Sequence record: OM632664.1
Strand: one strand, 5' to 3'
Source of the DNA: Escherichia phage BEU5
DNA length: 64,000 bases
The translations under genes were made by a program, and so were the position numbers. Of the stretch, positions 42,221-43,898 are shown in pieces; position 1 is the stretch's first letter, and each line of letters starts with the position of its first letter. The notes under the pieces were generated by a model. That model saw nothing but the letters and a program-made list of their open reading frames with translations, did not search any database and had not been told where the DNA came from.

Positions 42221-42724
42221 CTATTCAAACAGTTTACGGTCAGAACGAATCTGGTTCCCCAGTTCAATCAGTTGGTTATCACGGAGTCTAACAGTTGCCC
42301 TGAGTTCTTCAACCAAACGTCTGCCTTCTTCAAGACTTGAGTCGAGTCTGGCTGCATGGCTTGCAAGATTGAGGCATTGAGTGGTTCCGGTTGAGGCTTG
42401 ACGTTTATAACTCTCGGCTCGTTTTTCTGACTGGAGCAACCGACTATTGTACTGGTTAGTAATAGAATCAATAACGACTTCATAAGACTCTTTGGCTTTA
42501 TCAAGTCGAAGGGTAAGTTGCCCGACTTCATAACTGTGTTCCCGATTCTTTTGGTCATAAGCCAGTTTTACTCTATCAAGTTCTTTTGAGTACTCCTTCT
42601 TATCTTCATCCCATAGTGCTTGAACTTTCTTTTCACCATGTTGTGAACCAAGAAGAAAAAGGGTAGCTCCCAGAGCTACCCCTCCCAAAAGACATACAGT
42701 TAACTTAATTAACGATGTCTTCAT
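42221..42724 (-). CDS. i-spanin (Rz-like)
   Basis: start moved to ATG 42724 (GGAGAGG RBS); N-terminal [23 protein letters not shown] followed by coiled-coil-like charged region; contains an embedded lipoprotein ORF in the +1 frame. Confidence 0.6.
42268..42483 (-). CDS. o-spanin (Rz1-like lipoprotein) embedded within the Rz-like gene
   Basis: [18 protein letters not shown] lipobox signal; Pro-rich mature part (KPQPEPL); entirely inside Rz gene in another frame. Confidence 0.6.
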   Translation of the reverse strand: MKSLLILLLTSTIVGCSSQKNEPRVINVKPQPEPLNASILQAMQPDSTQVLKKADVWLKNSGQLLDSVITN

Positions 42725-43331
42725 TACACCTCTCCAGAGGGACATTACCAATACGGTTAGCAATCCATCCTGTAGTGTACTCAGGCATATTAAGAGATAA
42801 ATAGTAGTTTAACTGTTTACCATCCAGAGACTTCAAAATGAGCTTACAGGCTTCTACTTTGCCTCGTTTATTCTGAAGGCTCTTATATGCACTTAGAGTT
42901 CCAGAACCGACTTTACCATCAACTTGTATTTTAGGGTAGTCTTTGCCATTTCTGGAGAAAGCATTAAGAGATTCTTGTAACCAACGAGATGGTCTTGCAG
43001 GTCCAGTATTAACACCAGCATCTACTAGTTTTTCTGTTACCGCCGGTGATACATCTGCAAACTTAACAAAGCCAGGCTTCAAGATGTAATCGTTGTAATA
43101 AATACTTGATGCCATTTCCTGAGTTAAGTTCTTCATTGAACCATCCCAGTTATACATCGACTCTAGTTCTTGCTTATGCTTTTGAGCAACCTGAATAGTT
43201 ACACCATGATTAGTTTCACCTCCTGGGTCTTTGGGGTCATTAACGTATCCACCCTCAACAGCAAATACAGCAGCAATGATTGCTGCAATAACTCCTCCAA
43301 CACCACCAACTTTCTTCTTACTTATTGCCAC
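42705..43331 (-). CDS. endolysin, GH108-type N-acetylmuramidase with N-terminal signal-anchor-release-like segment
   Basis: 208 aa; Gly/Ala-rich weakly hydrophobic N-terminus VGGVGGVIAAIIAAVFAV directly followed by EGGYVNDPKDPGGETNHGVT (GH108 EGGY motif). Confidence 0.7.
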   Translation of the reverse strand: MAISKKKVGGVGGVIAAIIAAVFAVEGGYVNDPKDPGGETNHGVTIQVAQKHKQELESMYNWDGSMKNLTQEMASSIYYNDYILKPGFVKFADVSPAVTEKLVDAGVNTGPARPSRWLQESLNAFSRNGKDYPKIQVDGKVGSGTLSAYKSLQNKRGKVEACKLILKSLDGKQLNYYLSLNMPEYTTGWIANRIGNVPLERCNEDIVN

Positions 43332-43581
43332 ACCAATCCTCCTTTGGTTTCAAACGAACCAGTCGGCAAATAATATTCAGCACAAAGAGTGCTATAGCAA
43401 TGTTATTGCCATGTGGAATATCTTTGAGGATATGTTGGGGTAATGCAGAGAAAGAACTGGATAAGGCATCCACACAAGAGAAGAACAATATTGCTAATGT
43501 GCTAATCTGAATAGATGCCCATTTCCAACAACGTTTCCAATTAGGAACCATTTCCACATGTTTGGTTAACTTGCGAACCAT
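43318..43581 (-). CDS. holin candidate (two TM segments)
   Basis: start moved to ATG 43581 (GGGAG RBS); two hydrophobic helices ISTLAILFFSCVDAL and IAIALFVLNIICRLV and charged C-terminus; immediately upstream of endolysin. Confidence 0.45.
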   Translation of the reverse strand: MVRKLTKHVEMVPNWKRCWKWASIQISTLAILFFSCVDALSSSFSALPQHILKDIPHGNNIAIALFVLNIICRLVRLKPKEDWCGNK

Positions 43582-43898
43582 GCAAAAATCTCCCGTCTGG
43601 CAGCAGCCAGTATACCAATAATGATACCTGCTCCAGCCCATACCCATTTACCAAACAATCCAGCACCAACAACTTTATGTTTGATGGTAATGAACTCTTC
43701 AATAGTAGGGGCAGACTCAGCCAGAGACTTTTCTACATTCTCCAGTCGAGTGTCCATCTTATTAATAGACAGTTGAAGGTTACGTACAGCATCATCTAAA
43801 TCTTGCCGAGATTTAGCATCACGGGCATTATTTTCGAAGAGTGTCTTCATACGTTCCTCCATTCGAGCTAGGAGCACCTCTACGGATTCATGACTCAT
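43566..43898 (-). CDS. membrane protein with C-terminal TM (holin/antiholin candidate)
   Basis: 110-aa ORF; coiled-coil-like N-terminus and C-terminal hydrophobic VVGAGLFGKWVWAGAGIIIGILAA. Confidence 0.35.
   Translation of the reverse strand: MSHESVEVLLARMEERMKTLFENNARDAKSRQDLDDAVRNLQLSINKMDTRLENVEKSLAESAPTIEEFITIKHKVVGAGLFGKWVWAGAGIIIGILAAARREIFAWFAS

Follow-up and report, generated by a model that had tools for sequence, protein, structure and literature searches.

Endolysins that are exported by the Sec system, tethered by a Gly/Ala-rich signal-anchor-release (SAR) segment and freed by depolarisation through small holes have been described in phage 21 (S21/R21) and phage P1 (Lyz). The folds of R21 and P1 Lyz resemble that of T4 lysozyme, and S21 has two transmembrane (TM) segments, the first of which is SAR-like. 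In phage lambda, the Rz/Rz1 pair consists of a helical i-spanin with an N-terminal TM and an o-spanin lipoprotein, whose gene is embedded in that of the i-spanin in the +1 frame. A two-domain muramidase, composed of a GH108 domain with an EGGYV...GG.T motif and a PG_binding_3 helical bundle, is known from TtsA and Sen1395 of Salmonella (6v40 and 6v3z), chromosomal enzymes derived from phage endolysins; typhoid toxin secretion requires TtsA (PMC6996933). The closest described system is that of coliphage N4. This locus, the type example of its kind, encodes the founding member of the GH108 muramidases and makes up the lysis system of a paradigm phage. It was dissected experimentally by Awuah et al. 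(bioRxiv 10.1101/2025.11.12.688109, a 2025-26 preprint). For example, the cloned cassette was reported to lyse E. coli in ~25 min.

The window analyzed in this study is a stretch of 64,000 nucleotides of Escherichia phage BEU5 (OM632664.1). Positions 42221-43898 are, in our assessment almost certainly, the cassette of five genes with which coliphage N4 (Enquatrovirus N4) lyses its host. The features of the region are as follows.

43566-43898, minus strand: gp63, 110 aa, with a helical cytoplasmic N-terminal part and a single C-terminal Gly/Ala-rich TM, VVGAGLFGKWVWAGAGIIIGILAAA.
43318-43581, minus strand: gp62, a small membrane protein of 87 aa with two TMs; the maximal ORF is 109 aa and extends up to 43647.
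42705-43331, minus strand: gp61, an N-acetylmuramidase of 208 aa with GH108 and PG_binding_3 domains and an N-terminal SAR-type segment.
43257-43310, minus strand: SAR core of gp61, VGGVGGVIAAIIAAVFAV, codons 8-25, weakly hydrophobic, after KKK.
43245-43256, minus strand: EGGY motif of gp61, codons 26-29, with the presumed catalytic Glu26, aligned with EGGYV of Sen1395/TtsA.
42221-42724, minus strand: gp60, an i-spanin of 167 aa, anchored in the inner membrane in type II orientation by its N-terminal TM, with two long helices in the periplasm.
42268-42531, minus strand: gp60a, encoding the o-spanin lipoprotein and contained entirely within gp60 in frame +1 (coordinates per the AlfredRasser annotation).
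42436-42447, minus strand: lipobox I-V-G-C of gp60a, with Cys41 of the 96-codon ORF, ending the signal sequence.
43914-43937, minus strand: upstream hairpin, AGAGCCGGG-GAUA-CCCGGCUUU-UU, located between gp64 and gp63, with its end 15 nt upstream of the gp63 ATG.
42656-42686, minus strand: gp60 hairpin, GGGGUAGCUC-UGG-GAGCUACCC-UUUUUCUUCUU, within gp60 codons ~13-23, its start lying 19 nt downstream of the gp61 stop.

All five genes lie on the minus strand, where they would be transcribed in the order gp63, gp62, gp61 and gp60, with gp60a inside gp60. The original prediction, made from the sequence alone, had described five ORFs of a lysis cassette linked by overlaps. The cassette was borne out by the N4 annotation and by experiments on identical proteins, and the overlaps were found to be 16 nt (gp63/gp62), 14 nt (gp62/gp61) and 20 nt (gp61/gp60). 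The predicted lower bound at 42221 is likewise right, as it is the end of gp60. Gene order, overlaps and flanks (the portal gene gp59 and gp64) are alike in the N4 cassette (EF056009/NC_008720), and the N4 RefSeq record (NC_008720) together with the AlfredRasser record lists a holin, an endolysin, an i-spanin and an embedded o-spanin at matching coordinates. Additionally, gp62, gp61, gp60 and gp60a each matched a PHROG lysis family.

Across positions 42150-44000, a DNA identity of 99.6% to the N4 reference was observed, with seven nucleotide differences, none of them at a known rapid-lysis position, of which the sole non-synonymous one results in V39A in gp62 (87-aa numbering). This is the only residue by which gp62 departs from the N4 reference, the experimentally tested allele, while gp60, gp60a, gp61 and gp63 are each 100% identical to the reference proteins. 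The same region is 100% identical in phages BEU13, BEU42 and BEU44, and in 13 records of N4 and relatives the identity across the whole region is 99.2-100%. The rapid-lysis alleles known from N4 (G12E in gp61; T65I and T71A in gp63) were sought in BEU5 and none is carried, with gp61 and gp63 both matching the reference. In a comparison with eight diverged N4-like phages (Schitoviridae), the cassette arrangement, including a lipoprotein ORF in the +1 frame whose Cys is invariant, was found in all eight; it is not a product of chance. The N4 lysis cassette was annotated and experimentally characterised before; it is an ordinary and already known system. The locus carries little weight as a discovery, and its value is that of a positive control, with a pinholin/SAR-endolysin/embedded-spanin cassette correctly recovered from raw sequence alone.

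Two small membrane proteins, one with two TM helices and one with a C-terminal TM, had been predicted upstream of the endolysin gene, and these correspond to gp62 and gp63 in the hydropathy analysis (Kyte-Doolittle, 19-residue windows, threshold >1.2). In gp63, a hydrophilic stretch of 75 residues at the N-terminus precedes the one hydrophobic segment detected, with windows above the threshold starting at residues 76-92. In gp62, such windows start at residues 18-30 and 54-62 (87-aa numbering); the start of the 87-aa form, preceded by a GGAG-type Shine-Dalgarno sequence, is common to the relatives. A holin family was sought for gp63 in Pfam and the PHROGs without a match: Pfam returned sub-threshold noise only (DUF7217 and CLZ, below cut-off), and the protein belongs to PHROG 5211 (E 3e-50), a family listed as of unknown function. 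Its motif APTIEEFITIKHKVVGAG is kept in seven of the eight diverged relatives. Matches of gp62 included Pfam DUF7940 (3.6e-13) and PHROG 1356, "holin" (5.2e-28).

Both proteins had been put forward as holin candidates. This stood, with gp63 as the primary pinholin, and was refined for gp62, which the published experiments describe as a non-essential lysis regulator with late, CCCP-triggerable holin-like lethality. The converse assignment, with gp62 as the true holin and gp63 as an antiholin, a regulator or a structural protein, draws on the names given to the two genes: gp62 is annotated as a holin in RefSeq and in PHROG 1356, the PHROG of gp63 has no assigned function, and some records name gp63 a "tail length tape-measure protein". 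It also draws on the generic marks of a holin in gp62, namely the two-TM topology of the classical holin class, a position adjoining and overlapping gp61, and, from the preprint, lethality after CCCP with an eventual release of both soluble and SAR endolysins. However, Awuah et al. reported that a deletion of gp62 left lysis from the plasmid cassette unchanged and that phage lysis still occurred. In contrast, gp63 alone complemented the S21 pinholin defect of phage 21, though not lambda S105, and was lethal after CCCP, while a gp63 deletion was recovered only with compensating mutations in the SAR domain of gp61. Furthermore, the rapid-lysis mutations T65I and T71A fell in gp63, and among more than 60 isolates none was reported in gp62. 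On the dispensability of gp62, the complementation of S21 by gp63 and the spectrum of rapid-lysis mutations, a primary holin role of gp62 was rejected as very unlikely. The evidence thus supports the C-terminal-TM protein gp63 as the primary pinholin and the two-TM protein gp62 as a dispensable regulator. While gp63 works like a pinholin, it is outside the S21-type family: it has a single C-terminal hydrophobic segment and a long cytoplasmic helical domain, as compared to the two TMs of S21.

The endolysin gene gp61 starts with GTG, preceded by AAGGAGG. A GH108 endolysin had been predicted at exactly these coordinates, and the Pfam search confirmed it: Glyco_hydro_108 (PF05838) was found at residues 20-110 with 81.2 bits (curated cut-off 21.2, E 8e-23) and PG_binding_3 (PF09374) at residues 113-193 with 36.7 bits (curated cut-off 24.6, E 5e-9). 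The protein also matched the PHROG 315 endolysin (E 1.9e-41), and its relatives in the PDB were Sen1395 (6v3z, 1.9e-26) and TtsA (6v40, 1e-22). These share the two-domain organization of gp61, whereas R21 and P1 Lyz have the lysozyme-like folds mentioned above. E26 and T40 of gp61 align with EGGYV...GGPT of Sen1395/TtsA. The catalytic triad of TtsA is Glu14/Asp19/Thr28 (PMC6996933), and by spacing the corresponding positions in gp61 are E26, N31 and T40, where the equivalent of Asp19 is Asn31, as it is an Asn in Sen1395 too. The solved chains of TtsA and Sen1395 align only from gp61 residue 16-21 on and leave the N-terminal segment of gp61 uncovered.

This N-terminus reads MAISKKK-VGGVGGVIAAIIAAVFAV-EGGY, with EGGY directly after the SAR core and no gap between them. 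The 18 residues of the core comprise four Gly, five Ala, five Val, three Ile and one Phe. With Gly and Ala at 50% (9 of 18), the claim of a Gly/Ala-rich N-terminus running into the catalytic motif holds, and a Gly/Ala-rich N-terminus is kept in the endolysins of all eight diverged relatives. The further interpretation as a SAR muramidase is supported by published experiments on the identical protein. Muramidase activity of gp61 was published in 2007 (Stojkovic and Rothman-Denes, as cited in Awuah et al.), and according to the preprint gp61 is a SAR endolysin by experiment, rescuing endolysin defects alongside a canonical holin or a pinholin. Specifically, when S21 served as the pinholin, gp61 complemented a defect in R21. 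In the phage 21 system, gp63 can take the place of S21 and gp61 that of R21.

An ordinary cleavable Sec signal peptide on gp61, which would leave the enzyme constitutively secreted and active with lysis timing set elsewhere, was also considered. The segment end A-V-F-A↓V-E is compatible with the small-residue -3/-1 rule of signal peptidase I, so that the sequence alone would allow cleavage of gp61, and a KKK n-region is present. However, Awuah et al. reported a membrane association of purified gp61, slow, gradual and leaky lysis by gp61 alone as is typical of SAR endolysins, as opposed to synchronous lysis with a pinholin, and rapid lysis by G12E, a charged substitution in the SAR segment that speeds lysis up and causes no loss. 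Cleavage would also make the catalytic Glu26 the second residue of the mature enzyme, and the Gly/Ala-rich composition is the one kept throughout the relatives. On membrane association, lysis kinetics, G12E and the conservation of composition, a cleavable signal peptide was rejected as very unlikely, and gp61 is treated below as a SAR endolysin.

The start of the i-spanin gene gp60 is placed at the ATG given for it in the N4 records, while its longest ORF extends to 42763. Its Kyte-Doolittle peak is at residues ~4-26, a single-sequence AlphaFold2 prediction showed helices at 4-110 and 114-166 (mean pLDDT 74.7), and it matched PHROG 6197, "Rz-like spanin" (E 5.1e-68). The prediction of an Rz-like protein with a TM and a coiled coil was therefore upheld for the N-terminal TM and the long predicted helices. 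The predicted Rz1-like gene with a VGC lipobox was found wholly inside gp60 and in the +1 frame, as (42724-42531) mod 3 = 1, with alternative ATGs at 42558 and 42483. Its description as Pro-rich was only mildly true: the mature protein, 56 aa from the Cys, includes five Pro (9%) and a single Cys, that of the lipobox.

Neither gp60 nor gp60a matched any Pfam family at E <= 0.01, and the PHROG match of gp60a was weak (E 7e-4). In the N4 RefSeq record gp60a is unannotated, while the AlfredRasser record includes it as an o-spanin. Conservation of the nested gene was observed among the relatives. An embedded +1 ORF with a lipobox was found in 8/8, sharing 48-66% identity with N4 gp60a, which equals or exceeds the identity of the surrounding i-spanin frame (33-58%), and the +1 relation was the same in every relative for which the i-spanin frame was determined. 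The Cys is invariant across nine aligned sequences, and the mature part includes the conserved motif INVKP...LQxMQPxST...W...LLDSVT. A chance ORF, with gp60 acting alone, would fit the missing Pfam match, the weak PHROG match and the omission from RefSeq, but it was rejected with near certainty on the signal sequence, lipobox and invariant Cys in the same frame of all eight relatives, on the motif in the mature part, and on the lambda RzRz1 complementation, for which gp60 plus gp60a was used (Awuah et al.). In that report, the pair fully complemented the lambda Rz/Rz1 defect and was functionally interchangeable with the lambda pair. While gp60/gp60a share the architecture of lambda Rz/Rz1, no sequence homology was detectable and they form a separate PHROG family (6197); they are functional analogues of a different family.

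The gene anatomy, the domain content, the identity to N4 and the conservation of the nested frame are observations of the present analysis, to which published work adds the muramidase, SAR, pinholin and spanin complementation experiments performed by others on identical proteins. Together they suggest the following course of lysis. The endolysin gp61 would be exported by the Sec system, and its weakly hydrophobic Gly/Ala-rich SAR segment would tether it to the inner membrane in an inactive form, while gp63 would build up in the same membrane and, on triggering, open small holes through which the proton-motive force is lost. Upon depolarisation, the SAR segment would exit the bilayer and free gp61 into the periplasm over the whole cell circumference, where the released enzyme would degrade murein. 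The complex of gp60 in the inner membrane and gp60a, the predicted outer-membrane lipoprotein, would span the periplasm and, after loss of the murein mesh, disrupt the outer membrane, presumably by fusing it with the inner one. The two-TM protein gp62 would act as a dispensable modulator with slow holin-like lethality, and it may aid the exit of cells from the lysis-inhibited state of N4. Two points weigh against the part of this account that concerns gp62: in the preprint its deletion phenotype was not complemented, and gp62 of BEU5 departs from the tested allele by V39A.

Two terminator-like hairpins are the only detail of the cassette left unaddressed by the published work. Folding energies were -16.7 kcal/mol (z -3.65) for the upstream hairpin and -19.7 kcal/mol (z -2.25) for the one in gp60. 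A throttling of native lysis-gene transcription by these hairpins, which would set the dosage of lysis proteins, is conceivable, if rather doubtful. The upstream hairpin lies directly before gp63 and leaves no space for a promoter in front of the gene. A scan of the coding strand of the gp64-gp63 gap with the sigma-70 consensus found no promoter, but it is uninformative here, because the late promoters of N4 are weak ones that require the phage single-stranded-DNA-binding protein. If functional, the hairpins would limit expression of the cassette to read-through of the tail-gene transcript and reduce the spanins further, which could contribute to the characteristically late, asynchronous lysis of N4. 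The functional tests reported by Awuah et al. used lambda-Q-antiterminated transcripts, and since antitermination by lambda Q would bypass both hairpins, these tests would mask such throttling. The transcript-mapping paper on the N4-like phage LUZ7 contained nothing specific on the lysis cassette. A hairpin with a T-rich tail similar to that in gp60 was found in ECBP1 and a Klebsiella phage, while it was absent from the more distant relatives examined. Equivalents of the upstream hairpin, with a GC stem and a T-run but differing sequences, were present at seven of nine loci, and both hairpins are annotated as terminators in OW991345.

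The minus strand carries five ORFs at 42221-43898, where the original prediction had placed a compact lysis cassette. The region 42150-44000 was 100% identical to Escherichia phages BEU13, BEU42, and BEU44 and 99.6% identical to coliphage N4 (EF056009, NC_008720), and 13 records of the phage collection matched it over its full length at 99% or more (megablast). Base-by-base comparison with the N4 reference revealed no differences in the gp60, gp60a, gp61, and gp63 proteins, and V39A in gp62 (87-aa numbering; window position 43466) was the sole amino-acid difference in the cassette. 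Hence, the locus is N4's own cassette, and membership follows from identity. The N4 records label gp62 as 'holin', gp61 as 'N-acetylmuramidase' or 'endolysin', and gp60 as 'Rz-like spanin'; they also include gp63, and they flank the cassette with portal gp59 and gp64. The embedded o-spanin is additionally annotated in the AlfredRasser record.

Genes of the lysis cassette and its flanks
gp65, 45288-49436, minus strand: upstream, 1382 aa
gp64, 44002-45255, minus strand: upstream, 417 aa, Pfam non-contractile tail sheath TIM barrel (3e-69)
gp63, 43898-43566, minus strand: 110 aa, first 75 residues hydrophilic, single C-terminal hydrophobic Gly/Ala-rich segment
gp62, 43581-43318 (maximal ORF from 43647), minus strand: 87 aa, two hydrophobic segments
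gp61, 43331-42705, minus strand: 208 aa, GTG start after AAGGAGG, N-terminus MAISKKK-VGGVGGVIAAIIAAVFAV-EGGY
gp60, 42724-42221, minus strand: 167 aa, TM segment at the N-terminus
gp60a, annotated start 42531, stop 42268, minus strand: +1 frame, entirely within gp60
gp59, downstream of the cassette: portal, Pfam SU10_portal (1e-153)

With gp64 and gp65 upstream and portal gp59 downstream, the cassette lies amid virion structural genes rather than at an end of the late region. Its genes are linked as had been described, by overlaps of 16 nt (gp63/gp62), 14 nt (gp62/gp61), and 20 nt (gp61/gp60) and by the nesting of gp60a within gp60. The observation was thus accurate, and its reading as a SAR endolysin, holin, and spanin system agrees with the annotation and with experiments on the N4 cassette reported in a preprint (Awuah et al., bioRxiv 10.1101/2025.11.12.688109); the locus was already known.

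The Rz-like gene, gp60, wholly contains a +1-frame lipoprotein gene, as predicted. The gp60a product has a hydrophobic leader, the lipobox IVGC, and a mature part of 56 residues; the lipobox expected of an Rz1-like protein was therefore found, while 'Pro-rich' applies only mildly (five Pro in the mature part). Neither gp60 nor gp60a matched any family in the Pfam search (E <= 0.01), and gp60 matched PHROG 6197 'Rz-like spanin' (5.1e-68). A single-sequence AlphaFold2 model of gp60 (mean pLDDT 74.7) predicted long helices at 4-110 and 114-166 with a short break between, which fits an i-spanin. A tblastn search with gp60 identified 157 phage records, nearly all N4-like Schitoviridae, with hosts in Escherichia, Klebsiella, Erwinia, Achromobacter, Pseudomonas, Stenotrophomonas, Burkholderia, and Delftia. 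Among eight diverged loci compared, a lipoprotein ORF was nested within the i-spanin gene in every one, and at each locus with an assigned i-spanin frame it lay in +1. The nested lipoproteins share 48-66% identity with N4 gp60a, against 33-58% for the i-spanins, and have in common the motif INVKP...LQxMQPxST...W...LLDSVT and a strictly conserved Cys, indicating that the nested frame is constrained at least as strongly as its host frame. This constraint rules out gp60a as a chance ORF. Full complementation of a defect in lambda Rz/Rz1 by gp60/gp60a is reported in the preprint (Awuah et al.).

The GH108 assignment of the endolysin was borne out by Pfam, where gp61 exceeded the curated cut-offs for Glyco_hydro_108 (8e-23) and PG_binding_3 (5e-9). 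It also matched the solved Salmonella muramidases Sen1395 (6v3z, 1.9e-26) and TtsA (6v40, 1e-22). By alignment and spacing, the TtsA catalytic triad Glu14/Asp19/Thr28 (PMC6996933) corresponds to E26, N31, and T40 in gp61, and Sen1395 also carries Asn at the N31 position. The Gly/Ala-rich N-terminus lies directly before EGGY, as had been noted, and all eight diverged endolysins have such an N-terminus adjoining an E-G/Q-G-Y/W motif. Muramidase activity and membrane association of gp61 are attributed to Stojkovic & Rothman-Denes 2007 in the preprint. It further reports that gp61 can stand in for a defective endolysin whether the holin present is of the large-hole type or a pinholin, that lysis is slow, as for a SAR protein, when gp61 acts alone or is accompanied only by spanins, and that a spontaneous rapid-lysis mutation, G12E, falls in its SAR segment (Awuah et al.).

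The two small upstream membrane proteins were recovered as gp62 and gp63. For gp63, the sole family match in the Pfam and PHROG searches was an unnamed PHROG, and a homologue with the conserved stretch APTIEEFITIKHKVVGAG was found in seven of the eight diverged loci. The preprint describes gp63 as able to replace the phage 21 pinholin, though not lambda S105, and as killing irreversibly after CCCP, and it places the spontaneous rapid-lysis mutations T65I and T71A in a cytoplasmic 'Receiver' region of gp63; gp62 is described there as dispensable, yet its lethality is late and triggerable (Awuah et al.). Searches assigned gp62 to DUF7940 (Pfam, 3.6e-13) and PHROG 1356 'holin' (5.2e-28), and six of the eight loci encode a homologue, including an unannotated copy in ECBP1. 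Delftia phage RG-2014 lacks gp62, and the holin of phage Philippe is unrelated. The 87-aa start is the more likely one, given its conserved GGAG-type SD. The 22-codon N-terminal extension (MGMGWSRYHYWYTGCCQTGDFC; 43582-43647, minus strand) has an open frame of exactly 66 nt in five of six relatives, possibly as a by-product, because an overlapping stretch codes, in a different frame, for the conserved GKWVWA/TM part of gp63.

Cloned gp60-63 lyse E. coli about 25 min post-induction, as stated in the preprint (Awuah et al.). In the proposed mechanism, gp61 would be exported yet held tethered at the membrane; gp63 pinholes would depolarise the membrane and release it; the freed gp61 would degrade murein, and the gp60/gp60a complex would then open the outer membrane. 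We infer Sec export, depolarisation-driven release, and membrane fusion by analogy with the phage 21/P1 and lambda systems. The phage 21 pinholin/SAR-endolysin pair works similarly, with non-homologous parts: its endolysin is T4-lysozyme-like and its pinholin has two TMs, whereas gp61 is GH108 and gp63 has one C-terminal TM. Lambda Rz/Rz1 resemble gp60/gp60a in working and in embedded architecture, although the latter lack any Pfam match.

Two terminator-like hairpins, outside the original prediction, provide a modest lead.

Hairpin 1, 43914-43937, minus strand: strong, intrinsic-terminator-like, gp64-gp63 gap, 3' end 15 nt upstream of the gp63 ATG, -16.7 kcal/mol, z -3.65
Hairpin 2, 42656-42686, minus strand: TM-coding 5' end of gp60, begins 19 nt past the gp61 stop, -19.7 kcal/mol, z -2.25

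At the site of hairpin 1, a GC stem and T-run of differing sequence occurs in seven of nine N4-like loci, in most of these directly against the ribosome-binding site. This recurrence suggests a real terminator, with the cassette expressed by read-through. Hairpin 2, a predicted 14-pair helix with a perfect 9-bp GC-rich core, a 3-nt loop, and a UUUUUCUUCUU tail, could lower the level of the spanins or arise incidentally from the TM codons; it is possibly fortuitous, as its counterparts are limited to the two closest genera (ECBP1 and Klebsiella VLCpiP4a) and absent from more distant relatives. One record lists both hairpins as terminators but places them on the opposite strand. Terminators are unmentioned in the preprint text, and any hairpin dosage effect would have stayed hidden there because its expression system used lambda Q antitermination (Awuah et al.).

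Between the cassette (42221-43898) and the N4 reference, 7 of 1,678 positions differed (0.4%), none of them among the 504 of gp60, compared with 24 of 1,563 (1.5%) in the portal segment 40650-42212 and 28 of 1,254 (2.2%) in gp64. Dual-frame constraint or mosaic recombination may account for this lower divergence. Codon 39 of gp62 lies within or adjoining the first TM segment, and Val is also found in phage AlfredRasser.

Annotation of N4-type cassettes is uneven across public records (ECBP1 NC_018854; OY979416, OY978778, MH992123, MG770228). In the ECBP1 locus (about 1092-1350 of the stretch compared), the gp62 homologue is unannotated and the spanin call truncated. Elsewhere, gp63 homologues carry the label 'tail length tape-measure protein', and the spanin region is called 'RIIA lysis inhibitor' or 'virion RNA polymerase' in some records.
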